A stretch of 31,633 nt of DNA, counting the filler, from an uncultured virus (IMG/VR IMGVR_UViG_2061766007_004010) (lineage: Duplodnaviria; Heunggongvirae; Uroviricota; Caudoviricetes). It is 4 parts of one record of this genome, joined end to end, with 100 filler letters (N's around TTAATTAATTAA, not from the genome) between each part and the next. Parts side by side here need not be neighbours in the genome. Positions count along the whole stretch, not along the records: positions 22,256 to 31,633 come from IMGVR_UViG_2061766007_004010; 3 more parts are not named here. One strand, given 5' to 3'. How positions within the stretch are numbered: position 1 is the first letter of the stretch; each line of letters starts with the position of its first letter. This document shows positions 1,565 through 31,633 of the stretch, in pieces. The notes under the pieces were generated by a model that had not been told where the DNA came from, made no database searches, and saw only the letters and a list, made by a program, of their open reading frames with translations. The position numbers and the translations under genes are program-made.

Positions 1565-1653
1565 CATGCCAAATATAGCAAAAAATGGACGGTTTGGGCA
1601 TAGTTTCGTGTCATGAAGTACCGCTGTGTTTTCCCCAACTGCANNNNNNNNNN

Positions 1654-1916
1654 ATTACCGGCGGTCCGGAGATGCTCAGGAAACTGTACAGGTTCGAGGA
1701 GACCGACAGTATCGACACACAGATGGAATTTATCGCGAAATGCCGCGAAAGCAGGGCAAAAGGAAAGAAATAATGAACAAGCTACCNNNNNNNNNNGTCA
1801 CAGGCGGGCCGGAGATGCTCAGGAAGCTGTACAGGTTCGAGGAGACCGACAGTATCGACTCGCAGATGGAATTTATCGTGAAATGCCGCGAAAGCAGGGC
1901 AAAAGGAAAGAAATAA
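1654..1916 (+). CDS. C-terminus of a hypothetical protein upstream of the RNA ligase (two alleles: 1654-1773 and 1797-1916)
   Basis: ...TGGPEMLRKLYRFEETDSID(T/S)QMEFI(A/V)KCRESRAKGKK*. Its stop overlaps the ligase ATG (TAATG) in both alleles. Confidence 0.65.
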
Positions 1917-3070
1917 TGAACAAGCTACCACTTTTGGCGGACTACCTGGCTCGTGCCGAGGGTCCGGACCTCATCAAGGCGGTGTCGCCTGACGGGAAAT
2001 ACGTCAAGTTCAAGTACACCGATACGACAATCTTCAACGGACGCTGGGACGAGATTACGCTGAATGCCCGCGGGCACGTGTTCCGCCTGTCCGACGGGGA
2101 ATGTGTCCTCCGCCCGTGGTCCAAGTTCTTCAACTTTTCCGAGCTGTATTCCGAGACCGGGCAGCCGACCAACGTACACAAGATTCTCTCCGGGATTCCC
2201 GGGCTCGAGCCGAAGTTCGGCCTGGACGACCCGCACGTCGCAACCGACAAGCTAGACGGCTCCCTCTGCATCGCCGGCATAGTCGACGGGGAGCTCATGG
2301 TCACCACTTCCGGCTCGTTCACCGCNNNNNNNNNNAAAGTTCAAGTACACCGATACGGCAATCTTCAACGGGCACTGGGACGTGATTACACTGAATGCCC
2401 GCGGGCACGTGTTCCGACTGTCCGACGGGGAATGCGTTCTCCGCCCCTGGTCCAAGTTCTTCAACTTTTCCGAGCTGTATTCCGAGACAGGGCAGCCGAC
2501 CAACGTACACCAGATTCTCTCCGGGATTCCCGGGCTCGAGCCGAAGTTCGGCCTGGACGACCCGCATGTAGCAACCGACAAGCTCGACGGCTCCCTCTGC
2601 ATAGCAGGCATAGTCGACGGGGAGCTCATGGTCACCACTTCCGGCTCGTTCACCGCNNNNNNNNNNNNNNNNNNNNNNTATGGTACCCGGACTGACTTAC
2701 CTGTTCGAGATTATAGCTGACGAGGACCTGCACCCGATACGCTACGACTATGAAGGATGCGTGCTCACCGGTATAATCGACAATGCTACCGGCGTCGAGC
2801 AGCCCTATGCCGAGCTTCAGCGGTTCGCCGCCGAGGCCGGCATCCGAGTTACCCAGCAGGTAATCCTCAACTCCTTCGAGGAGACCCTGGAATACGTCAA
2901 GTCCCTCCCGGCAAACAAGGAAGGGCTCGTCGTAACCTATCTCGAGAACGGGTTCAAGCTGAAGCTCAAGGGCCCGGAATTCCTGGCCGTCCAGCNNNNN
3001 NNNNNGGTAACCTATCTCGGGAACGGGTTCAAGCTGAAGCTCAAGGGGCCGGAATTCCTCGCCGTCCAGC
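1916..3070 (+). CDS. T4 Rnl1 (RnlA)-family RNA ligase, fragmented (1916-2325, 2336-2656, 2680-2995, 3006-3070)
   Basis: FKYT...W...NARGHVF...RPWSKFFN, motif I TDKLDGSL, TSGSF, TYLFEII, motif IV EGLVV and motif V KLKLKG. This is the Rnl1 motif set in order. Confidence 0.9.
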
Positions 3071-3080
3071 NNNNNNNNNN

Positions 3081-3445
3081 TGAGGTCGACGAGTGCGACA
3101 GCTACGCGGAAATGCAGGTGGATTCCAAGGGTTACTGCCAGGCCGGCAACGCGGTATACTTCTCGCCGGGACACCGGCACATAGCGGCCGACCTGCTGAA
3201 GAAGCACATAGAGCACTACATGGTGCAGGCCAAGTCNNNNNNNNNNCGAGTGCGACAGCTACGCGGAAATGCAGGTGGATTCCAAGGGCTACTGCCAGGC
3301 CGGTAACGCGGTATACTTCTCGCCGGGACACCGGCACATAGCTGCCGACCTGCTGAAGAAGCACATAGAGCACTACATGGTGCAGGCCAAGTCGGAATAC
3401 GAAAATGCCCTGGCGAGGGCCAGGGCTGACTGGAAGAGTCTCTAG
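3081..3445 (+). CDS. C-terminal fragment of a hypothetical protein (two alleles), possibly the tail of the HNH protein
   Basis: EVDECDSYAEMQ...QAKSEYENALARARADWKSL*. Its stop overlaps the convergent gene's stop. It is not the ligase tail, which is at 1-395. The link to the HNH protein is inferred only. Confidence 0.55.
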
Positions 3446-10327: not shown

Positions 10328-10356
10328 TTGACAGTGTGTGAATAAATTTGTAATTT
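10328..10356 (+). promoter_or_regulatory. Sigma70-like promoter
   Basis: TTGACA-17 nt-TAATTT in an AT-rich divergent intergenic region. A second TTGACA is at 10317-10322. Confidence 0.55.
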
Positions 10357-10403
10357 ACTGTGCAAACACATGGCAATGCCTTGCCGAACTAACAAGGAAT
10401 ACA

Positions 10404-11771
10404 ATGAGCAGGAAAGAAACCGCAGATTCCCGTAAGCTCCTGAAGCTCTTGGGAAAACCGACCCCAGACACCCGCTACAACGCAACCAACAACCCGGCCG
10501 TAATCAAGCTTCTCGACACGTACGACATGGACACCGACAGGGTGTGCCGCTGGTACGACGTACTGGTCTCCCTCGGGTGGGTGACCGAAGACTACGACGA
10601 ATTCGAGAAGAGCGTGAAGAAGACCGCCAAGAAACGGCTCGACTCCACCCGCACGGCCGCCAGAATCGTCAAGCAGAAGACCGCGAAGCTCCCGAAGCGC
10701 CCGGAATACGACGACGACCTGGTCAGCAAGGCAAACTCCGCCATGGACGACGGCATGCTCATCTCCATGCAGAAGGACCTGAACGCCGCCAAGAAGACAA
10801 TCAAGGAGATGCAGGCATCCGATTACGAGAAGCGCCGCATGATTGGTGAGCTCCGCGAGGCACTCGCGGACTGCACCCCGGACAGGTTCACCATCAAGTT
10901 CGAGAAAATCACCCCGAAGCACGGCAAGGGCAAGTTCTACAACATCCTCCCGCTTTCCGACATCCACTGGGGCGAGGTTGTGCGCTCCCACGACGTCAAC
11001 GGGCTGAACGAGTACAACTTCGAAATCTCCAAGCAGCGCCACATCGAGCTCTTCAAGAAGAACTACGAGTACGCACAGGCCTTCGGATGCGAGGAACTCG
11101 ACATCTTCATGCTCGGCGACATGTTCTCCGGCAACATCCACGACGAGCTCCGCGAGAACAACGAGGCACCGATTACCAAGTGCATCGCCCAATATTACAA
11201 ATTTATTACGGGCCTCATCGATGCCTACAAGGGGTGCTACAAGAAGGTACGCATCCACTGCGTGGTGGGCAACCACGCCCGCACCACCCAGAAGTACCAG
11301 TTCAAGGCCAAGGGTATCGAGAACTACGAATACATCCTGTACTCGTTCATCGAGAACAAGTACAATGATTCCAACGACAACGTGAACGTCATCTTCGGCG
11401 ATTCCACCGTACTGTTCACCAAGGTCGGCAACCAGACCTGGAAACTGGAACACGGCGACCGCTACAAGGGCGGCTCCGCCTTCGTCTCCCCGCTGTCGAC
11501 CACCGTCCGCGACAACTTCAAGGACCAGGCGATATTCGCGGCCATCGGCCAGAAGTTCGACGCGGTCATGATGGGACACTGGCACATCGGCGGCATCTGG
11601 TACCTCCCGGGGACCACCACGCCGGTCTACCTGAACCCGAGCCTCATCGGCCCCGGCGAGTACTCCGTGCACAACCTGCACAGCGCGTTCCCGGCTTCCA
11701 GCTTCAGCTTCATCACCGATGGCAACAAGGTCGTCGACCAGCGCCTAATCGACCTGTCCGGCATCAGATGA
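10404..11771 (+). CDS. Calcineurin-like metallophosphoesterase with N-terminal helical/coiled-coil extension
   Basis: SDIHWG, LGDMFSG, VGNHAR, EHGD and MGHWH motifs. The AAGGA SD supports a start at 10404, and there is strong C-ending codon bias. Confidence 0.85.
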   Translation: MSRKETADSRKLLKLLGKPTPDTRYNATNNPAVIKLLDTYDMDTDRVCRWYDVLVSLGWVTEDYDEFEKSVKKTAKKRLDSTRTAARIVKQKTAKLPKRPEYDDDLVSKANSAMDDGMLISMQKDLNAAKKTIKEMQASDYEKRRMIGELREALADCTPDRFTIKFEKITPKHGKGKFYNILPLSDIHWGEVVRSHDVNGLNEYNFEISKQRHIELFKKNYEYAQAFGCEELDIFMLGDMFSGNIHDELRENNEAPITKCIAQYYKFITGLIDAYKGCYKKVRIHCVVGNHARTTQKYQFKAKGIENYEYILYSFIENKYNDSNDNVNVIFGDSTVLFTKVGNQTWKLEHGDRYKGGSAFVSPLSTTVRDNFKDQAIFAAIGQKFDAVMMGHWHIGGIWYLPGTTTPVYLNPSLIGPGEYSVHNLHSAFPASSFSFITDGNKVVDQRLIDLSGIR

Positions 11772-16470: not shown

Positions 16471-16955
16471 TTCTTAATCTCCAGTTCTTCAACAGTTGAC
16501 AGCGGAAGATACGATATTGTAAACTTGTATGTTTGCTTATGCGAACTCGGGTCCTGACTGACGAACGAATGGATAAGGAACGGGAATTTTTCATGGTCAT
16601 CGCCAATCGGATGAGGGTTATGGTCTAGGAACGGGCCGTTTCCCTGGTCAATCATGCCTACTTCCCAGTCGCATTCCTTCATTAGCTCGTCCATGAGAAC
16701 TTCGTAGAGCTTGGCGCGTGTAATTTCCTTCCAGTATTCGGAGTCCGGGAAGATGACGCGCTGCGCCTTGATGACCGTCGTGAGGTCGAGCTTGGACAGT
16801 GCCAATGCTGCCGTACGGTATACCTGCTCGTGCTTGACTGGATATTTTGCCTGAGCGGGCGCCAGTTCGGTGACCTTAACGCCTTTCATCGGGTCTACAT
16901 AATTCGGAGCTTCCATGATATCATCCTCTGTGCGCACGTCGGCAAACGGGTCTTC
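16467..16955 (-). CDS. C-terminal part of the hypothetical protein starting at 20562
   Basis: Overlaps 19707-19811 (EDPFADVRTEDD...). Its stop overlaps the nucleotidyltransferase ATG. Confidence 0.7.
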   Translation of the reverse strand, partial: EDPFADVRTEDDIMEAPNYVDPMKGVKVTELAPAQAKYPVKHEQVYRTAALALSKLDLTTVIKAQRVIFPDSEYWKEITRAKLYEVLMDELMKECDWEVGMIDQGNGPFLDHNPHPIGDDHEKFPFLIHSFVSQDPSSHKQTYKFTISYLPLSTVEELEIKK

Positions 16956-16965
16956 NNNNNNNNNN

Positions 16966-18282
16966 CTGAAGAGAACCGGCTGGATTATCATGGACGCCGT
17001 CGTCGGCAGCCAGGCGTTTGGCCTTGCTACCGAGACGTCCGACGTGGACACGCGTGGCGTGTTCGTTCTCCCCATCGAGGACCGTTTGTCCTACAATGCA
17101 ATCGACCAGGTGGCCGACGAGAAGAACAACCATGTCTACTGGGAGCTCAAGAAGTTCCTCCAGCTCCTTCGCGACGGCAACCCGTCCGCTCTCGAGCTGC
17201 TCAACTCGCCGAAGCGCTGCATACTGCAGGGCGAGGAGTTCTTCGANNNNNNNNNNGTCGGATACGACGCCGTAGGCCCAGCGCCATTCGTGCTCGTCGG
17301 CGGCAATCTCGCACCTGTCGAGCGGGACGTTTTCCCAGTAGAGCGCATATGTGTCGGTAACGTGGTCGATTGCTGCAATGGCGTAGTACTTCGGCTCGTC
17401 CTTGCACTCGTAAGGACGCTTCTTCACCCATTCCTTGAACGGGACGGCCAGGTTGCCGTCAACCACGTAGCAGTAGTCGAGCACCTTGGGAGGTTCCTCG
17501 GGCTGCGGGTTGAAAATCTTCTTGTTCAGGCCGTATGCCCTGGAAAGCTGGCTCTTGGCGTACTCCAAGAACGACTTGCAGCAGGCCGGGGTAATCCACA
17601 CGTCCTTCGGAATCATCTCGAAGAACTCCTCGCCCTGCAGTATGCAGCGCTTCGGCGAGTTGAGCAGNNNNNNNNNNATATGCCCTGGAAAGCTGGCTCT
17701 TGGCGTACTCCAGGAACGACTTGCAGCAGGCCGGGGTAATCCACACGTCCTTCGGAATCATTTCGAAGAACTCCTCGCCCTGCAGTATGCAGCGCTTCGG
17801 CGAGTTGAGCAGNNNNNNNNNNGCAGGTGGGCATCCTGTTCTTCAACAAGAACGCCTACTCGCACGACTGTGCCGAGCACACCAAGTACTGGAAATGGGT
17901 AAAGGACAGAAACGAGAGCCGGTACGAGGAAACAATCAAGCACGGCCAGGGATACGACGCAAAGAATACCATGCACTGCATCAGGCTGCTGATGACGGCG
18001 AAGGACATCGCGGAAAGAGGAACTGTTACCGTCGACCGGACGGCAGACCGCGAGTATCTCCTGTCAATCAAGCAGGGAAAGTTCACCTATGACGAGATGA
18101 TGGAACAGAGCGACAAGCTCGTCGCCGAAGTAACCGAGGCATTCAAGAACTCTACCTTCCTCAAGCCCGTCATTTCCCATGAAGAACTTGACCAGCTATT
18201 CACCAGCCTCCTGTTGTCCTTGCATGACAAGTTCAACCGTTTAATCAAGTCGAACATGGAGTTCGACGAAGAGGAAAGCTAG
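16966..18282 (+). CDS. RlaP/YcgL-type (PF10127-like) nucleotidyltransferase, fragmented in mixed orientation (16966-17246 +, 17257-17667 -, 17678-17812 -, 17823-18282 +)
   Basis: GSQAFGL..SDVDTRGVF, WELKKFLQLL..GNPSALELL, F..YA.SQL, YDAKNTMHCIRLL and LLSIKQG motifs. Confidence 0.88.
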
Positions 18283-18333: not shown

Positions 18334-18416
18334 AACTAGGCTAAATCCCGTTCATTTCGTAGCGTAAAATCTCCGAGCAGCAACTTGGGTGGACAAAGCC
18401 AAGAGGAAATTGAATA

Positions 18417-22255: not shown

Positions 22256-24467
22256 TGAACTTCCGGGAGCCCCGGCGAACCTCTCAATTCCTACGACCAC
22301 GTGGCCTTCCACCGGATACATCGACGACATCATCATTTCCGATAACAACGGTGTCGCCTACATCGACGTCCCGGACGGCGAGGGCACCTACGACATCTAC
22401 GTCCACAACATCCATACGGGCGTGGGCGGTACGAACGGTTCCAAGATTTACGTCCGCATGCAGGACGGGGGCCGTCTCACCCGTATCTTCGTGGAAAGCC
22501 TCGAAATCGGNNNNNNNNNNTATCATCTCTGCGAACGACGGGGTCGCCTACATCGACGTCCCTGACGGCGAGGGCACCTACGACATCTACGTCCACAACA
22601 TCCATACGGGCGTGGGCGGTACCAATGGTTCCAAGATTTACGTCCGCATGCAGGACGGTGGACGCCTTACCAGAATCTTCGTGGAGAGCCTCGAAATCGG
22701 CAACCACACGACGTTCAACGTGATNNNNNNNNNNAGGCGGTACGAACGGTTCCAAGATTTACGTCCGCATGCAAGACGGGGGCCGTCTCACCCGTATCTT
22801 CGTGGAGAGCCTCGAAATCGGTAACCACACGACGTTCAACGTGATATACAGGACCGAGGACGGCGATGAAATCCAGACCCAGAAGCAGTACCGCGGCAAC
22901 GTGATGTTCTATTCCAACAACAACATCACGTTCGACAATACCGACAACGTGCCCATCCAGGGTTCATTCATCACTACCGGCAAGATTTTCCTGAAGTGCA
23001 ACCTGGACTTCGCCGGGCAGCTCCTGGCCAACCAGCTCGAAATCGGCGACGACTTCAAGGGCGAGAACTTCCGCTTCGTCCCGTTCGACCCTGATACGCT
23101 CGACATCGACCCGGAACTCAACAAGGACGGCGGCCTCCGCGAGAACGACTCCACCGTAGTCATCCCAATCAAGCTGAGCGACACCGCCACCGTAGACGTA
23201 TACTTCAACTACTGCTTCGACCTCCGCGACGGCGTGACGGTTGACGACTTCAACCTGGTGACGGACTTCCCCATCTGCGGCACCGAGACCAAGACCGTGG
23301 TAATCCCGACCGGCAAGAAGGTCCCGACCACCCCGATTACGGTCAACGTGAAGAAGGACACCATCACCGAGCCCTCCGACTACCTGGTCATGAAGATTTC
23401 CATCGAGTCCGGCGCGGTCCTCCCGAACAACAAGACCGACGGCGAGCTCAGAATCCGCATCATCGACGCCGACTACACTCCCCGCCCGCTGTTCGACTCC
23501 ACCGCTGTGTACTCCGAGAAGGAAAACTACACCGGCAAGGTGGACAGCATCAGGGTGGTCAACAAGACCGACTCCACCAGGTTCGTCCTGGATTCCGCGT
23601 ACGCGGGCCGCTACTCGCTGGATTCAGTCACCGGCGTGCTTACCCTGCTTACCCCGGTGGACTACGAGACGACCCCGGTGGATACCATCAAGGTCACCCT
23701 CAAGGACACCGCCGGGTATTCAGTAACCGGCCTCATCCCGGTCTCCGTAATCGACCTCAACGAGGCCCCGGAAATCACGACCGCGAAGGTCGAGTTCAGC
23801 GAGAACCTCCCCGTCCCGGCGAAAATCGGCAAGATTGAGTGGACCGACCAGGACATCCCGGCTTCCTTCCGCGACAACGCCCTGGAAGTCCTCGTCCCGG
23901 CCGACGGCATTACCGTCCAGGCAGACGGCTCCGTCTACACTACAAAGGTGTTTGACTACGAAACCGACCCGAAGGAAATCGAGCTTACCGTCCGCGTGTA
24001 CGACAAGGGCAACCCGGCACTTGCCGATACAGCCACCGTGAAATTCGTCCTCTCCGATATCGACGAGAGCCCGAGCGCCCGTGATACCACGTTCCATGTC
24101 GCCGAGAACACCACCGGTCCCGTAGGAACGCTCGTAGCCAATGACCCCGAAGGCAAGGGTCTGACCTACACCATCGTCGGCGATACGCACGGCTTCACCG
24201 TCGACAGCACCGGCNNNNNNNNNNTACCACCGGTCCCGTAGGAACGCTCGTAGCCAAGGACCCGGAAGGCAATGGACTTGCCTACACCATCGTCGGCGAT
24301 ACGCACGGCTTCACCGTCGACAGCACCGGCAAGATTGCCAATACCGTTCCGTTCGACTACGAGACAGAGAAGACCGCCACTATTACGGTCAAGGTTTCCG
24401 ACGGGACCAAGACCTCCACCGCTACGGTCAAGATTGTCGTCGACAACGTGAACGAGCCCGTCCACGC
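22256..24467 (+). CDS. Large secreted cadherin-repeat protein, middle fragments
   Basis: A beta-rich domain and a Calx-beta-like segment are followed by cadherin repeats (DYE, DxNExP, ENxP, AxDPEG). Confidence 0.85.
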
Positions 24468-24478
24468 NNNNNNNNNNC

Positions 24479-24559
24479 CTCAGGGAAGGACTGGTCCTCC
24501 GTCTCAAGGACGACTACTCCGTATCCTTCAAGGCGAAATCTCCGGACTACAGCATATGA
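24479..24559 (+). CDS. C-terminus of a second RNA ligase (Rnl2/DRB0094-like)
   Basis: LREGLVLRLKDDYSVSFKAKSPDYSI* contains motif IV (EGxV) and motif V (SFKAKS). It is not in the ORF track and only 26 aa are visible. Confidence 0.55.
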   Translation, partial: LREGLVLRLKDDYSVSFKAKSPDYSI

Positions 24560-24882
24560 GCGAAGACCTGAAGAACGAGGCCGGGGACGAGGAGCTCAAC
24601 CGGCAGTACCGCACCGCCCTGCACACGCTCGAGGAAATCCACAAGAGGAAACTCATCGAGTCGATAGCGAACGGGATGGACCCTGACCGCTCCCAGAAGC
24701 AGAACTCCGCCGGGTGCGGGTGCGTGCTGTGGACCCTTTTCATGCTGATGATAGGGTTCACCGGGGCGGCCTGCATGTCGTGGATGTTCAACCACTCGAT
24801 GCTGCAGGCGTTCGTGCACGGGCTGATTGGCTGGATATACATCTGCTACAAGGCGTTCTGGTACGTAGTTACCACCTATTAG
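24556..24882 (+). CDS. Membrane protein with two C-terminal hydrophobic segments
   Basis: ATGA overlap with the upstream gene. Two hydrophobic stretches follow GCGC. Confidence 0.7.
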   Translation: MSEDLKNEAGDEELNRQYRTALHTLEEIHKRKLIESIANGMDPDRSQKQNSAGCGCVLWTLFMLMIGFTGAACMSWMFNHSMLQAFVHGLIGWIYICYKAFWYVVTTY

Positions 24883-24908
24883 AAGTACGGGACACGCCGT
24901 CCCGCTAC

Positions 24909-24924
24909 TTTTTTGCTATATTTG
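24909..24924 (+). promoter_or_regulatory. TTTTTTGCTATATTTG promoter motif preceded by a terminator-like hairpin
   Basis: Recurrent motif. A CGGGAC/GTCCCG stem lies just upstream and an AAGGA SD downstream. Confidence 0.7.
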
Positions 24925-24964
24925 GATTACGTACATCATAAAACACTCACAAGGAAACACAACA

Positions 24965-26010
24965 ATGTCCATTAAAGTAAGAACGAAAGTCATCACCCCG
25001 GCAATCGCCGAGGCCATGCTCCGCACCTCCGCCGAACTCGGCGCAATCAACCGCAAGCTCAACAACAGGCACGTCGAGCTCTACGCCAACGAAATCCGCT
25101 CCAACCGCTGGAAGCTCAACGGCGACGCAATCCGCCTAGACGACGACGGCAGAATCCTCGACGGCCAGCACCGCCTCCATGCATGCGTACTCGCCGGAAT
25201 CCCCTTCACGACCATCGTGATGACCGGCGTGGACGCCAACACGTTCGACACCATCGACTGCGGCCGCGTCCGCACTACCTCCCAGGTACTCCAGATGGCC
25301 GACGTCAAGTACAATTCGCTGGTATCCAGTATCATCCGCGGCGCTTCCGAAATCCGTTCAGTCGGCCACACCGACATGAAGGAGAAGCGCCTCTCCAACA
25401 CGGCGGCACTCGCCGAATACAACACCAATGCCGAGCTCTACAACCGCGCAGCCGCAATCAGCTCGTCCGCNNNNNNNNNNTGCCGTCCCGCCGAAGCTCG
25501 TCGGCTCCGTGTACTACTACCTCGTCCACGACCTCAAGCAGGACGAGGAGAAGGTCGAAAAGTTCGTCCGCGACATGGTCTCGTTCGACAGCAGCTCCAG
25601 CGCCATCATCGACAAGCTCCGCAANNNNNNNNNNAGGTACGAACTGGAATGCTACAAGGTTACCGTCTGCAACTTCCGCGCCCTGCCGAAGAACCGCACG
25701 ACCACCATCGCGTTCATCCTGAAGAAGGCCTCCATCGAGAAGTACAACATCCTGCTGACCGAGAAGGCCGCTGAGTGCAANNNNNNNNNNGAAGTTCGTC
25801 CGCGAAATGGTCTCGTTCGACAGCAGCTCCAGCGCCATCATCGACAAGCTCCGCAAGTGGAACCTCGCCAACCGCGCTGTCAAGGTGTCCGACCGCACCC
25901 GTCTCGGTTTCATCATCCTCACCTGGAACGCCTGGATTAGCGGCTCCCGCAAGGCACCGCGCTTCTCCGAGGCCAACATCGAGGAAATGCCAGTATTCAT
26001 CGGAAAATAA
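24965..26010 (+). CDS. ParB/Srx-like (DGQHR) phage protein, fragmented (24965-25470, 25481-25624, 25791-26010)
   Basis: ITP..A..ML, NR.L, W..NGDAI, LDGQHRL.A and ID.G..RT motifs. The fragment at 25635-25780 is an unrelated insert. Confidence 0.8.
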
Positions 26011-26018
26011 GGAAACAG

Positions 26019-26801
26019 ATGCGCAACAATTTCTTCATCCAGTCCCCGTACGTCCAGCTCCTGGACGAAAACCGCAAGTCCCTCGGCACGATGCCCTCGG
26101 GAAAGGCCAAGGACATCGCGAACAACAGGGACATCCTGCTCGTCCTCGTAGACGGCAGGGCAAACCCGCCGGTGTACGCACTCGGCACGGGCCCCAAGGA
26201 CGAAATCATGACCTCCACGGTCCGACTCATGGACAGCAACCGGGAGAACCTCGGCGTCATGAGCGCGGCCGACGCCAGGAAGCTGGCCGNNNNNNNNNNA
26301 ATGACCTCCACTGTCCGACTCATGGACAGCAGCCGGGAGAACCTCGGCGTCATGAGCGCGGCCGACGCCAGGAAACTGGCCGAGGAACGCGGCGAGGACA
26401 TCATCGTCCTCAACCCGAAGGCCGACCCGAACGTCTGCATGCTCGGCGACAGGAAGAAGTACGAATACGAACGCAAGAAGGCAGCCAAGGAAAACGAGAA
26501 GAAGCAGCGCTCCGCCGCCAAGTCGAACGAGCTGAAGGAGCTCAAGCTCCCCGCCGACACCTCCGATTCCTCCAAGGGAGACCGCGTAAGGCTGTTCTCC
26601 CGCGCCGCCGAATTCGTGGCCGAGGGGCATCCGGTGCGCCTCAGCGTCCGTTTCCGCGGTCGAATGATGGCCCATTCGTCCGACGTAATGCAGAGACTCT
26701 ACGAGGAGGCCGTCGCGGCAATCCCCGGCGCGAACATCGCCGAACCGTCCGCAGCAGGCAACATCTTCGCGATGCTCTGCACGCCAAGCAAGAAGAAATA
26801 G
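26019..26801 (+). CDS. infC: Translation initiation factor IF-3 homologue with duplicated N-terminal domain
   Basis: Two IF3-N units, the KKYEYERKKAAKE linker, then IF3-C (KELKL...GHPVRLSVRFRGRMMAH). AAGGA SD. About 229 aa after removing the allele overlap at the gap. Confidence 0.88.
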   Translation: MRNNFFIQSPYVQLLDENRKSLGTMPSGKAKDIANNRDILLVLVDGRANPPVYALGTGPKDEIMTSTVRLMDSNRENLGVMSAADARKLAXXXXMTSTVRLMDSSRENLGVMSAADARKLAEERGEDIIVLNPKADPNVCMLGDRKKYEYERKKAAKENEKKQRSAAKSNELKELKLPADTSDSSKGDRVRLFSRAAEFVAEGHPVRLSVRFRGRMMAHSSDVMQRLYEEAVAAIPGANIAEPSAAGNIFAMLCTPSKKK

Positions 26802-26821
26802 CTATTACCTCTGTTGATAAC

Positions 26822-26853
26822 AAGGGCCCCGGGAGAAATCCCGGGGCCCTTTC
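26822..26853. terminator. Terminator hairpin between the convergent IF3 and cadherin genes
   Basis: Perfect 13-bp stem AAGGGCCCCGGGA-GAAA-TCCCGGGGCCCTT. Confidence 0.85.
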
Positions 26854-26873
26854 TGGTGTTTTCGTGAACCTGG

Positions 26874-29800
26874 CTACTTTTCCTTCGGACGCTTGTACCC
26901 GAAGATTGTCATGTCGTCGTCCTTCTTGACGGTCCTGTCACCCTTGACCTGTTCCTTGTAGTCGCAACGGTGCTTCGCCACCGACTTGCTGAACAGCTTG
27001 GTGATGTAGCTGGAAGTGCCGAGGGACTTCCCGTTCTTCGCCTTGACGTTCCCGTCGCGGTCGGCGAGCCAGTCGACGACCATCTGGACGGTACCGGCGT
27101 CGGTAGCCTTGGCCTGGTCGTTTAGCGTGTATTCGACCGTGAAGTCGTTAACGTAGTTCGCCTGTGTGGTGTATACCCAAAGGTGCATCGTATACTTCAC
27201 GTCGTACAGCGGGATGTTGAGCCCGTTCTTGGCGTAGTCGGCCTTGAACTCGTCGGTGCAGTGCTCCTCGACGTACTTGTCCACCGGGATTCCCTTGGTG
27301 GATGCCCCAACGATGTTCCCGCGGTCGTCCACCGGAATCATGCCGTTCTTGACGATGTCGTCCAACGTGGCCAGGCCTCCCGTGGCGGAAACGCTGGGAA
27401 GCGCGATGTCCACCTTGAAGCCGACGCCGATGGTCTCCGGGAGCTTCCCGTCCTTCGGGTCGGTGAACTTCACCTTGACCGGGTTTTTCGGGTTGTAGTG
27501 GTGGCCGTCGCCGTAGTATTCCTCGACCTTGTCGCGGTCAATCTCGGTTACCGGGTGGATGATGGAAACCTCGATGTCCTTGGCTTCCTTCATGATTACC
27601 AGTACCGTGTCGATGGCGACGTTGCCGGCCTTGTCCACGTAGCGGCGGATGACCATGTTCGGGCCCTTCTCGAGCCTCTGGAGGGTGAGGGTGTCCTGGA
27701 CTTCCCCGTTGACCGTCCACTTTACCGGGATGGCGTTTGTATGGAAGATGGTGCCCTTCACGGGGTCGAGAATCTCGAGCTTGGGCGGGATGTCGTCGAA
27801 GACTATCGCCACCTCGGCGGATGCGCGGTTCCCGAAGTCGTCGGTATAGTCGTAGCGGACCGTATAGCCGATGTTGCCTTCCTCGTTCTTCACTACCTTC
27901 TTCTTGTCGTCCAGTTCGTAGGAAACTGTCGTGCAGGAATCCACATTGTATGAAACGCGGTAGTTGCCGATGCGTTCGCCGGTCATGCCGTCGGTCGTGT
28001 ACGTGATGGTCACGTCCTTGCCGCCTTCCTTGACCGTATAGGTTACGGTCTGCAGGGTATCTACCGGTTCCATCGTCTTGAGGTCGACAATCCTGGACAG
28101 GGTGACCTTGACGCCGTCGACCGTGACGACTTCCTTGACCTCCGCCTTGCCATTGCCAATCGGGGTCACTTCCGCCTTGCTCTCGTCAATGATGTAGCCG
28201 TAGTCCTTGACGGAATAGGGCTTCACGGAAACCGTATCCAGCTTCACGCCGATGTCGAAGCTCTTCTCGGTCTTCTGGACAGTATCCTTGATGGTAACGC
28301 GAAGGTCATTGTCCTTCCTGTTCACGTAGATGCCGTCATCGGCAGTCTCCTCGATGGTGATGTAGTCGATTAGCGCGTCGGTGTTATTGGCGTTGGACAG
28401 GATTACCACGGGAGGCACGTCGTTGAAGATGAACACCACCTGGTCGCAGGAGGTCTTCCTCTCGTTGCACACCTTTACGGTCGTGTCNNNNNNNNNNGTT
28501 GCCAATCGGGGTCACTTCCGCCTTGCTCTCGTCAATGATGTAGCTGTAGTCCTTGACGGAAGAGGGCTTCACGGAAACCGTATCCAGCTTCACGCCGATG
28601 TCGAAGCTCTTCNNNNNNNNNNTCCCCGGTGAGGGCGTCGGTGCGGTAGGAAACCGTGATTTCCTTCCCGCCTTCCTTCACGGTGTAGGTGACGGTCTGG
28701 AGGGTGTCCAGCGGCTCCATGGTCTTCAGGTCGAAGATTCGGGTGATTGCGACGTCGATACCGTCGACCATGACCACTTCCCGGACTTCCGCCATGCCGT
28801 TGCCTATCGGGGTCACATCGGCCTTCGTCTCGTCGATGACGTAATTGTATTCCTTCACGGAGGAAGGCTTTATGGCTACGGTGTCGAGCTTCACAGACAC
28901 GTCGAAGGACTTCTCTGTATTGGAGACGGTGTCGCGCACGGTGACCCGGAGGTCGTTGTCCTTGCGGTTGACGTAGNNNNNNNNNNNNNNNNNNNNNNNN
29001 GATGGTGATGAAGTCGATTGTGCCGGTGGTGCTGCGGGCGTTGGTCAGCGTGACCACCGGGGGAACGTCGTTGAACAGGAACACCACCTGGTCGCAGGAG
29101 GTATTCTTCCCGTTGCACACCTTGACGGTGGTGTCCTTGCGGATTTTCACGTCGAGCGTGTCGAAGTCGCACTTGCCGGATTCGCAGATGCGGTAGTCGA
29201 TTGTATGGTCCGGGACGTTGGTACGGACGGTGTCGCGCTTGGGCTCGCCGTCNNNNNNNNNNAGGCACGTCGTTGAAGATGAACACAACCTGGTCGCAGG
29301 AGGTCTTCATCTCGTTGCANNNNNNNNNNCCGTGACGCGGAGGTCGTTGTCCTTCCTGTTCACGTAGATGCCGTCGTCGGCAGCTTCCTCGATTGTAATG
29401 TAGTCAATCATGGCGTCGGTGTTCTTGGCATTGGAGAGAATCACGACTGGCGGGACATCGTTGAAGATGAACACAACCTGGTCGCAGGAGGTCTTCCTCT
29501 CGTTGCACACCTTTACGGTCGTGTCCTTCCTGATGGTGACGCCCAGGGTGTCGAACACGCACTTGCCGGACTCGCAAATCCTGTAGTCGATAGTATGGTC
29601 CGGGACGTTGGTACGGACGGTGTCGCGCTTAGGCTCGCCGTCGACCTCGGTAATTTCCGTCTTTTCCGGTACGTCGAGAACCTTGATTACGACAGTAGCC
29701 GTATCGCTGAACTCGCCGTCGGTCACGATGACCTGGACTGTATCGCCGGCGGTCTTCTCGTAGTCGAACGGCTCCTTCACCGAGATTTCCCCGGTGGAGT

Positions 29801-29990
29801 CGATGGAATACCTGGCGGTGTCCGAGATGATGTAGGACGGCCTGGTATTGTCCTCGTCCCATGCGTGGACCTTGCAGCCGGTCTTCCCGGTGGCGTTCTC
29901 GGCCACGGTGCAGGTAGTATCCTTGACGTGGACGGGCTCGTTGATGTCACTTACCTTGACCGTGTAGGTCATGATGTCGGAAGCTCCGGC
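26874..29990 (-). CDS. Large secreted cadherin-repeat protein, C-terminal fragments and alleles
   Basis: The last cadherin repeat (29331-29990) overlaps 26874-28487, which ends ...IFGYKRPKEK*. Divergent alleles occupy 28498-29319. Confidence 0.85.
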
Positions 29991-30000
29991 NNNNNNNNNN

Positions 30001-31633
30001 GGACCCCGAAGGCAATGGACTGACCTATACCATCGTCGGCGATACGCACGGCTTCACCGTCGACAGCACCGGGAAGATTACCAATACCGTTCCGTTCGAC
30101 TACGAGACCGAAAAGACCGCCACGATTACGGTCAAGGTTTCCGACGGGACCAAGACCTCAACCGCTACGGTCAAGATTGTCGTCGACAACGTGAACGAGC
30201 CCGTCCACGCCACGGATACGACATTTGCCGTCGAGGAGGGGAAGACCGGGGTAATCGGGACGGTCCCCGCATCCGACGAGGACAGGACCCCGGTGAAGTA
30301 TTCCGTTACCGACACGGCGAAATATTCCATCGACTCCACCGGGAACCTCACCCTGAATACCCCGTACAACTACGACGATACCAAGGCCGACACGGTCAAG
30401 GTCGTCGTCACGGACGGCGAGTTCTACGATACTGCGAAGGTCGTGGTCAATGTCNNNNNNNNNNGCTGAATACCCCGTACAACTACGACGATACCAAGGC
30501 CGACACGGTCGAAGTCATCGTCACGGACGGCGAGTTCTACGATACTGCGAAGGTCGTGGTCAATGTCATCAACCGAAACGAGCCTCCCGTGCTCCAGCCG
30601 AACGACTCGCTCACTGTCCCGGAGAACTGCGGGAACTGCATCGTCGGCATCATCACGGCGGCCGACCCGGACAAGGATACCCTGACGTTCAAGGTCCTGG
30701 AACCGGGTTTCACCATCGACTCCAACGGCGTACTCAAGCTCACCGACCCGCTCGACTACGAGACGACCCCGGAAGTCAAGGTGACCGTTACCGTCAGCGA
30801 CCCTGCCGGAGCTTNNNNNNNNNNTGACCCCGACAAGGATACCCTGACGTTCAAGGTTCTGGAACCGGGTTTCACCATCGACTCCAACGGCGTNNNNNNN
30901 NNNTCAAGGTTCTGGAACCGGGATTCGCCATCGACTCCAACGGCGTCCTCAAGCTCACCGACCCGCTCGACTACGAGNNNNNNNNNNTCGAACACCTTCG
31001 TGGCGTAGACCGTCCCGTCGGGGTTCACGGAGATTCCGTCGGCCGGGACGAGGACTTCCAGGGCGTTGTCGCGGAAGGAAGCCGGGATGTCCTGGTCTGC
31101 CCACTCAATCTTGCCGATTTTCGCCGGGACGGGGAGGTTCTCGCTGAACTNNNNNNNNNNCTCCTTCTCGGAGTAAACGCCGGTGGAGTCGAACAGCGGG
31201 CGGGGGGTGTAGTCGGCGTCGATGATGCGGNNNNNNNNNNTCCACTCAATCTTGCCGATTTTCGCGGGGACGGGGAGGTTCTCGCTGAACTTGACCTTCG
31301 CGGTAGTAATTTCCGGGGCCTCGTTGAGGTCGATTACGGATACCGGGATGTATCCCGTGACGGAATACCCGGCGGTGTCCTTGAGGGTGACCTTGATGGT
31401 ATCCACCGGGGTAGTTTCGTAGTCTACCGGGGTAAGCAGGGTAAGCACGCCGGTGACGGAATCCAGCGAGTAGCGGCCCGCGTATGCGGAATCCAGGACG
31501 AACCTGGTGGAGTCGGAGCCGTTCACAATCTTGATGTTGTCGACGACGCCGGTGTAGTTNNNNNNNNNNCGCCGGGTTGCCCCTGTCGTACACGCGGACG
31601 GTAAGCTCGATTTCCTTCGGGTCCGTCTCGTAG
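30001..31633. CDS. Further cadherin-repeat fragments and alleles in mixed orientation
   Basis: 30001-30977 (+) extends the 24225-24467 fragment by two more repeats. 30988-31633 (-) duplicates parts of 23455-24020. Confidence 0.8.

Follow-up and report, generated by a model that had tools for sequence, protein, structure and literature searches.

What does a bacteriophage gain from a translation initiation factor that carries one of its domains twice, and is such a protein real? The question arises from an open reading frame (ORF) in a 31,633-nucleotide stretch of an uncultured Caudoviricetes genome (IMG/VR record IMGVR_UViG_2061766007_004010), referred to here, at its full length, as the window. 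An initial annotation made from the sequence alone described this ORF as an initiation factor 3 (IF3) with two tandem N-terminal domains followed by a C-terminal domain (N-N-C), in a genome that seemed to use leaderless messenger RNAs (mRNAs). IF3 is a fidelity factor of bacterial initiation, and the role of its N-domain is still debated. That phages can carry IF3 is already known, as two earlier reports attest (PMC7162821, PMC7824862). The best explanation of our data is that the ORF encodes an IF3 homologue of a clade of huge (~380 kb) cattle-rumen phages, in which one ancient event put an extra IF3-N-fold domain (unit 1) before a complete IF3 (unit 2, linker and C domain). With a probability of roughly 0.6, we think that the protein combines a working IF3 core with a putative accessory domain, one that binds RNA or the ribosome and shifts affinity or selectivity in a direction favouring phage messages.

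Establishing the true length of the gene required information from outside the window, which is a poor scaffold: it contains 65 runs of N, and 16 of these gaps are flanked by duplicated sequence, the bases on the 5′ side recurring on the 3′ side with a few mismatches. One such gap (26290–26299) lies within the IF3 gene; here, 83 pre-gap bases recur post-gap with 4 mismatches, and the ORF as scaffolded gives three IF3_N stretches in Pfam, the third of which is a 27-residue partial repeat at the gap. Assembled contigs of independent public runs (X4, X6 and X7, the last of which looks like X6 data filed twice) were aligned to window positions 24478–28487. The X6/X7 contig joins 26207 to 26301 and the X4 contig joins 26239 to 26333, skipping exactly 93 bases each time; the real gene is therefore continuous, N-N-C, and encodes 229 residues, the length of its closest database relatives. 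A third IF3_N repeat was rejected, as the independent contigs lack those 93 bases and the gap flanks are duplicated. Once this repeat is removed, the composite unit 2 sequence proposed in the initial annotation is correct, and the ORF exists as described there; it encodes two tandem IF3_N domains, joined to an IF3-C domain through a linker helix rich in Lys. The X4 and X6 contigs both also bypass 25559–25790, inside the upstream ParB-like gene, and the fragment 25635–25780 is misplaced in the scaffold. Elsewhere in the window, the locus near 1098 (+) and 1581 (−) is one sequence scaffolded twice in opposite orientations, and the gene order is unlike that of a related phage, G001.

Given this scaffold, with its gaps, duplicated flanks and misplaced fragment, the tandem could be a product of mis-assembly, or the annotated start could be wrong, with translation from an internal ATG at 26208 yielding a single-N IF3. 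An AAGGA motif does lie 7 nt 5′ of that in-frame ATG (window 26196–26210), and a short single-N isoform is conceivable in this strain. However, the gap-free fragment 25791–26289 holds the whole of unit 1 together with the first 27–28 residues of unit 2, so that both N units begin on uninterrupted sequence; the gene is equally continuous on contigs assembled in other studies; and 68 protein clusters and 7 viral records share the layout (see below). Relatives have I, S, V, T, A or L in place of Met64, which is encoded at 26208, so that initiation at this internal position is not conserved, and the ratio of non-synonymous to synonymous substitution rates (dN/dS) of unit 1 is 0.15–0.19. We consider either form of artefact extremely improbable.

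Both N-terminal units are recognized by the Pfam profile for this domain, at gathering cut-offs of 26.9 bits for IF3_N and 34.8 bits for IF3_C. The part of the ORF before the gap (26019–26288) scores 54.6 bits for IF3_N in two stretches, the best at residues 6–53, and the part after it (26301–26798) scores 57.7 bits; in the related phages G001–G005, unit 1 scores 30–46 bits and unit 2 53–78 bits, both over cut-off. Thus, where the standard layout of IF3 has one N- and one C-domain, two N-domains are found per ORF. Compared with each other by BLASTP, the two units are identical at 15/45 positions (33%, E 2e-8). The unit 1 profile matches IF3 N-domains in the PDB (E 2.7e-9), and a phmmer comparison with Escherichia coli IF3 returned 1.2e-19.

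The predicted structures lead to the same assignment. Unit 1 was modelled alone from 10 sequences (predicted local distance difference test, pLDDT, 90) and compared with 48,161 PDB representatives. Its best match is the IF3 N-domain 1tif_A (Z 8.9, root-mean-square deviation (rmsd) 1.6 Å, 57/59 residues); other IF3 N-domains rank next, and the first unrelated fold reaches only Z 4.8. For the whole protein, an AlphaFold (AF2) model based on an alignment of 24 relatives (pLDDT 83.5; predicted template modelling score, pTM, 0.44), has the order β-β-α-β-β twice, then a helix at residues 114–138, then a β-α-β-α-β-β C domain. Residues 59–229 of this model superpose on full-length IF3 (5lmn_X, Z 14.2, 162 residues), and the predicted C domain has the IF3-C fold (1tig, Z 14.1, rmsd 1.5 Å, 86/88 residues; 2m71, Z 12.1). 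An ESM Atlas search returned scores of only 0.80–0.81, a lead at best.

The architecture is not peculiar to the window. In a search of a 5.8-billion-protein collection, 68 protein clusters among the best 120 matches listed have the N-N-C layout, with lengths of 227–241 residues and 37–88% identity; coverage is 98–100% in all except two, at 76%. One further match, P0062 (155 residues, covering 62% of the query), is likely to be a fragment, and the listed matches after it have 164–221 residues and cover 47–69% of the query. Unit 1 alone, searched against a 1.84-billion representative library, retrieved 8 proteins at E ≤ 0.001, 4 of them with two matched stretches, including distant members of 248 and 255 residues; tandem N-domains unlike unit 1 would escape this search. 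Two IF3_N matches over cut-off in one ORF were also found in P0001, P0069, P0125, P0127, L010 and L011.

That the carriers are phages, as initially proposed, is borne out by their genomic setting. A scan of viral contigs with the single protein gave no match; an alignment-based scan of the same contigs gave 9 loci. All seven related IMG/VR contigs (55–355 kb), searched whole, have exactly two IF3_N matches, both over cut-off, in one open frame, and IF3_N matches once in two single-N phage records (L008 and L009). Terminase_6N scored over cut-off in 5/5 related records searched for it. CheckV completeness was 93% for the 355-kb record and 81% for the 308-kb record, and the genomes are therefore ~380 kb. 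The window and G001 share 15.6 kb at 67–79% nucleotide identity, and the ligase, exonuclease and nucleotidyltransferase genes of the window (Table 1) are likewise of phage type. The IF3 stretch occurs in sequencing runs of bovine gut metagenomes, spread over 12 studies.

In named phages and in PHROGs, only the canonical part of the protein finds counterparts. Among 50,697 named phage records (INPHARED, tblastn), 21 IF3-like matches were obtained, none covering at least 80% of the protein; 20 of them start at residues 52–76 and the remaining one at residue 33, corresponding to unit 2 and the C domain only. The phrog_9787 match (E 1.2e-30) is confined to residues 96–241 of the 260-residue scaffolded ORF, again unit 2 and C. 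A pattern-limited scan of 185,579 species genomes gave 27 loci, of which only two are N-N-C: L010 and L011, on contigs of 4.2 and 8.9 kb, in rumen metagenome-assembled genomes (MAGs) labelled Fibrobacter and Prevotella. Their proteins are identical to each other and closely similar to that of the viral locus L007, and both contigs are probably phage DNA mis-binned into MAGs. The bin labels were rejected as a host call, because the same phage protein sits in both bins; a further candidate, L012, listed as matching residues 1–229, turned out to be an ordinary single-N IF3. The architecture might have been common in the host lineage; instead, apart from these two short, phage-like MAG contigs, it was not found in the bacterial genomes covered by this pattern-limited scan. 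No description of a tandem IF3 N-domain was found in the open-access papers searched and, as far as these searches reach, a tandem-N IF3 is undescribed.

Residues known to contact RNA distinguish the two units. PMC9723500 identifies three initiator transfer RNA (tRNA) elbow-contact residues in the E. coli IF3 N-domain, including R25 and R66. We mapped residues to E. coli numbering and counted them in 70 N-N-C proteins and 53 single-N IF3s. At the R25-equivalent position, unit 2 has Arg in 70/70 and single-N IF3s in 53/53, and unit 1 has it in 0/70, with Q, T, L, E, A, V, M or S in its place. The R66-equivalent is K or R in 52/53 single-N IF3s; in unit 2 it is Met in 62/70 (K/R in 7/70), and in unit 1 it is Ala in 49, Ser in 10 and Thr in 6 of 70 (K/R in 4/70). 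The invariant tRNA-elbow Arg is present in the whole protein through unit 2 only; unit 1 lacks it and so is not simply a second tRNA-binding N-domain. Near-invariant positions in unit 1 are K29 (62/70), K31 (65/70, plus 5 Arg) and Y53 (69/70), and its mean net charge is +1.4, with −3.5 for unit 2 and −2.3 for the canonical N-domain. Arg69 of unit 2 and the RFRGRxxAH motif of the C domain are strictly retained. We conclude that unit 2, linker and C domain make up a complete though derived IF3, and that unit 1, judging from these residues, is a selected accessory domain that would not bind the tRNA elbow in the canonical manner.

The same substitutions could be read as those of a decoy, a protein that would compete with host IF3 for 30S subunits while deficient in fidelity or release, acting as a dominant negative that depresses host initiation. 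Unit 2 has lost its R66-equivalent and unit 1 both elbow contacts, and the C domain is diverged, scores under the IF3_C cut-off and is less basic than that of single-N IF3s (mean net charge +0.4 versus +2.6). However, phage mRNAs need the same ribosomes, half of the phage ORFs look Shine-Dalgarno (SD)-led, and strict retention of RFRGRxxAH and Arg69 is expected of a working factor; a shut-off role thus appears unlikely.

The extra domain appears to be old. In a tree of 95 N-domains (52 columns, and so of limited resolution), a single split (support 95/55; present in 97% of bootstrap trees) unites the 21 copies of unit 1, those of unit 2 group with single-N domains, and the same three sub-groups recur in both halves. 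This pattern fits one old origin of unit 1 followed by its co-divergence with unit 2; unit 1 may derive either from unit 2 or from a different IF3. A relative is P0128, a metagenomic single-N protein of 167 residues that shares the C-domain signature (DTSSSSENDR, GHPV) and the linker with the N-N-C family, from which it differs in having one N-domain only. The start of that domain resembles unit 1 and its end resembles unit 2, and in the tree it takes a position between the unit 1 copies and the remaining N-domains. Searches for its genomic context yielded no more than a linker match of 23 residues in the viral scan and nothing in the metagenome scan; P0128 may represent either the ancestral state or a secondary loss. 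The dN/dS of linker and C domain is 0.11–0.14 and that of unit 2 is 0.51 in the one pair with unsaturated dS; with the values for unit 1 given above, the gene is under purifying selection in all its parts.

How might an IF3 of this kind act? We propose that the core formed by unit 2, linker and C domain would bind the host 30S subunit like IF3, placing its C domain close to the P site and unit 2 against the elbow of the initiator tRNA. On a tether of 6–20 residues, unit 1 would be an added RNA- or ribosome-binding module and may take another site, such as the one on the platform that a lone IF3-N vacates on tRNA arrival. Its occupancy could change affinity, residence time or start-site discrimination to the advantage of phage messages. 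Several observations weigh against an accessory domain on a working core. At a pTM of 0.44, the placement of unit 1 relative to the rest of the model is not reliable. IF3_C scores are 26.1–34.1 bits in the window (30.1 bits in the part after the gap), P0001, P0069, P0125, P0127 and L010/L011, all under 34.8 bits, whereas the single-N phage IF3s L008 and L009 score 88–101 bits. Ribosome or tRNA contacts may be weakened both by the Met at most R66-equivalents of unit 2 and at E. coli R99 and R116, which align to Pro and Glu. Lastly, the assembled contigs of RNA run X18 cover 24478–24619 and 27724–27908, which include neither the IF3 gene nor any of the promoter boxes described below; three RNA runs contain only 6–7% of sampled words.

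The protein is of interest beyond its phage context, as an N-domain has been duplicated and both copies are under selection across a diverse phage clade, one of them stripped of the invariant tRNA-contacting Arg. The full protein, a unit 1 deletion and unit 1 alone are ready-made constructs for asking what the IF3 N-fold does besides contacting the tRNA elbow, and the system illustrates a possible route by which a huge phage may re-programme the ribosomes of its host.

Comparison with known IF3s shows both common and divergent features. Residues 59–229 align along the entire solved bacterial IF3 (InfC; PDB 1tif, 1tig, 5lmn, 8jsg), and the phage protein shares with it the N fold, Lys-rich linker helix, C fold, R25-equivalent Arg and RFRGRxxAH. 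It differs in the added N-terminal IF3-N-fold domain without an R25-equivalent, the Met at the R66-equivalent of unit 2, the IF3_C score under the Pfam cut-off and, relative to E. coli IF3, a 4-residue insertion in the linker and the DTSDSSKGDR loop of the C domain. Cellular infC has an AUU start and belongs to the infC-rpmI-rplT operon; in contrast, the phage gene starts with ATG and has a ParB-like gene upstream and no rpmI-rplT downstream. Mitochondrial IF3 works where mRNAs are leaderless. Like the phage protein, it makes additions to the N-linker-C plan (PDB 6neq, 6rw4), and unit 1 matches the 6rw4 N-domain at Z 7.6. There is, however, no close kinship (16–18% identity), and, according to PMC6352543, its additions are N- and C-terminal extensions rather than a second folded N-domain. 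The single-N phage IF3s (phrog_9787; for example, that of Agrobacterium phage Atu_ph07 and those of the huge phages of Al-Shayeb et al. 2020, PMC7162821) resemble ours in being carried by a phage, and differ, in L008 and L009, by having one IF3_N and a canonical IF3_C. Redirection of host translation has been proposed for phage IF3 in PMC7824862 and PMC7162821.

The initial annotation also raised the possibility that these phages use leaderless mRNAs. The 12-mer TTGCTATATTTG (TG-n-TATATT) occurs exactly six times in the window, for which shuffles give 0.6 matches even with two mismatches allowed. At the window box sites 5845 and 20578 (−) an ATG lies 4 nt away, and the duplicated locus 1098/1581 is also of this type. 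In the three relatives analysed over their full records, TGCTATATTT (G001 and G005) and the variants TGCTACATTT and TTGCTATATT (G003) rank first or near the top of all 10-mers by frequency. The consensus TGCTA[T/C]ATTT, that is, TG-n-TA[T/C]ATT, has the form of an extended −10 element. The −7 element of Bacteroidota is TAnnTTTG; this reading of the box was rejected, because the arrangement as TG-n-hexamer, together with the abundance of AAGGAG, agrees better with an extended −10 of a host that uses SD sequences.

We then counted box sites at which an ATG opening an ORF of at least 50 amino acids lies 3–8 nt past the terminal ATTT. There are 12 such sites of 37 in G001, 17 of 33 in G003 (16 of them at exactly 5 nt) and 11 of 32 in G005, or 32–52% of box sites versus 3.5–4.2% of random positions. 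An ATG 5 nt after ATTT has its A 7 nt past the hexamer, and 7 nt past a −10 hexamer is the usual +1 position. The prediction that transcripts start on the A of the ATG, giving leaderless-type mRNAs at these sites, is thereby partly supported. At the other box sites with an ORF, the ATG is 9–69 nt off, and an SD frequently intervenes; a small number of sites lack an ORF altogether. Of 38 box-abutting ORFs compared with PHROGs, 12 matched, all to nucleotide-metabolism or auxiliary families and none to virion proteins; several matches begin at ORF residues 1–10, which supports those ATGs as true starts.

Set against whole genomes, such starts are few. Among crude ORFs (first ATG, at least 90 amino acids), a box at −12 (±1) precedes 6/171 in G001, 17/262 in G003 and 10/339 in G005, and an SD core at −18 to −4, with a sharp peak at −11/−10, precedes 85/171, 115/262 and 160/339, respectively. 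The two signals rarely coincide: within the subset of ORFs with TGnTAnnnT at −12 (±1), an SD core is found in 0/6, 0/17 and 1/10, so that 32 of 33 have none. In the control G007, an unrelated, complete 362-kb genome (30% GC) with a single-N IF3, 3% of ORFs have an SD core and there is no −12 peak; the method itself thus does not generate the peak, although one unrelated genome is no test of association with the tandem IF3. From these patterns, the phages appear to mix start types: many transcription units would open with a leaderless gene, and genes elsewhere would be SD-led. The description of a leaderless genome thus holds in part: the box abuts an ATG at a third to half of its sites, but only 3–7% of crude ORFs are of this kind, ~45–50% have an SD core, and the IF3 gene itself is SD-led.

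Could the N-N-C IF3 specifically retune initiation towards leaderless phage mRNAs, with unit 1 blocking or replacing the rejection of 5′-terminal AUGs or 70S splitting? Leaderless early messages of the phage would in that case be translated despite the additional IF3. According to the review PMC9031893, IF3 keeps 30S subunits off model leaderless mRNAs and, at high levels, inhibits some of them. A phage with leaderless first genes and an ordinary IF3 would paradoxically work against itself, and a modified IF3 is therefore an attractive idea; the frequency of TGCTA[T/C]ATTT in G001, G003 and G005, the ATG mostly exactly 5 nt on and the near absence of SD cores at these starts agree with it. However, leaderless-type starts are far outnumbered by SD cores, the IF3 gene itself is SD-led, and the same review notes that low IF3 can stimulate leaderless translation. 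Moreover, all N-N-C phages examined are kin, so that the co-occurrence amounts to one observation, and the sole single-N control, G007, is an unrelated 30%-GC phage. We regard this specialization as doubtful. In its most explicit and equally tentative form, unit 1 would act as a switch of initiation mode, docking at the free IF3 N-domain site or at the mRNA 5′-end site and disabling rejection of 5′-terminal AUGs or 70S initiation, while the core keeps fidelity on SD-led genes. If this were true, one added protein would let a phage run leaderless promoter-proximal and SD-led internal genes on host ribosomes, and would provide a natural handle on the contribution of the IF3 N-domain to mRNA class selection. 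Phages that combine an N-N-C IF3 with ATG-abutting boxes are a direct test system for IF3 variants on leaderless versus SD-led messages.

Our preferred reading also includes the way in which the gene appears to be expressed (Table 1). The predicted +1 of the upstream promoter-like box is near 24929, which would give a ~36-nt leader to an operon of the ParB-like and IF3 genes, and the IF3 gene within it is, by its motif, SD-led; downstream lie the terminator and then a convergent gene. The related locus L001 shares this layout, with a ParB-like gene upstream, AAGGAG at the SD position and an equivalent hairpin 3′ of IF3. In L002, a box lies 26 nt 5′ of the IF3 ATG, with AAGGAA in between. IF3 and the parB-like gene would thus be co-transcribed from a promoter of the extended −10-like class, which also serves genes of nucleotide metabolism and auxiliary functions, and membership of this class suggests expression by host RNA polymerase.

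Table 1. Positions of the IF3 gene, its domains and signals, and other features in the window.
Feature	Position	Strand	Remarks
12-mer TTGCTATATTTG sites	1098, 1570, 5845, 18322, 20567, 24913		Two of the six are one locus scaffolded twice, in opposite orientations
Rnl1-type RNA ligase	1613–3303	+	Split by a gap into two ORFs
SbcD-like exonuclease	10338–11768	+	phrog_284
RlaP-family nucleotidyltransferase	16915–17736	+
Terminator-like hairpin and T-run	24888–24904	+	Closes the upstream unit
Promoter-like box TTTTTGCTATATTTG	24910–24924	+	TG-n-TATATT, extended −10-like; geometry inferred
ParB-like gene	24965–26010	+	phrog_5931; broken by gaps and the misplaced stretch 25559–25790; AAGGAA in leader
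SD-like AAGGAA	26009–26014	+	4 nt 5′ of the IF3 ATG; overlaps the upstream stop codon
IF3 ORF as scaffolded	26019–26801	+	260 codons and stop, with 4 X from the 10-N gap; real product 229 residues, N-N-linker-C
Unit 1, extra IF3-N-fold domain	26031–26186	+	Residues 5–56; Pfam match, AF2 model, match to 1tif_A
Scaffold artefact	26208–26300		83-base duplicated contig overlap and 10 N; 93 bases absent from independent contigs
Unit 2, canonical IF3-N	26301–26450	+	Residues 64–113 (62–63 at 26202–26207); invariant Arg69
Lys-rich linker helix	26451–26525	+	Residues 114–138; AF2 helix, alignment to E. coli IF3
IF3-C domain	26526–26798	+	Residues 139–229; diverged; family-specific DTSDSSKGDR loop, RFRGRxxAH retained
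Intrinsic-terminator-like hairpin	26822–26851	+	13-bp stem; ends the operon

Other genes for RNA functions in these phages raise a further alternative, in which the protein, or unit 1 of it, was recruited to an RNA task outside initiation, such as serving the phage tRNA sets or ribosome rescue. G003 encodes 41 tRNAs and a transfer-messenger RNA (tmRNA; tag ANNAYACRMAA), at G003:C1:44241–47779 and 135605–139038, and G005 encodes 40 tRNAs (G005:C1:48358–71751); only one tRNA is found in G001, which is 41% complete. The window carries RNA-repair genes (the Rnl1-like ligase and RlaP nucleotidyltransferase of Table 1), with no tRNA by ARAGORN and no Rfam family. A 1:72 mismatch and three anticodon-stem G:C pairs define the bacterial initiator tRNA, and 0/5 CAT tRNAs in G003 and G005 have both. 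Iyer et al. (PMC7824862) suggest that the IF3 of phages may have a part in ribosome rescue or in the translation of the phage itself. However, the full IF3 core is conserved in our protein, no specific link between unit 1 and tRNA was found, and there is no canonical initiator among the five CAT tRNAs; we therefore hold a role outside initiation to be very unlikely. One CAT tRNA, G005:C1:56058–56131 (−), has a C1×U72 mismatch without the three G:C pairs and resembles an initiator in that respect alone; G003, which is incomplete, showed no counterpart.

Some minor features of these genomes may also be recorded. A second over-represented word in G005, GCAGTTTATAT, occurs 19 times; together with AAGGAGTTAA (19 times in G005) and AAAGGAGACAA-type words (20–22 times in G003), it may point to another promoter class and to strong ribosome-binding sites. 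The ~70 nt that follow box 18322 (window 18334–18405; L001 18346–18416) contain no ORF and are more conserved between the window and L001 than their flanks, with a second box following in L001. This stretch may be a small RNA; it has no Rfam match and folds no better than shuffles (z −0.34 and −1.22). Finally, three ORFs in the window, at 22769–24238 (+), 29310–29972 (−) and 29971–31005 (+), have cadherin-domain matches and, on that basis, may encode virion surface or adhesion proteins.

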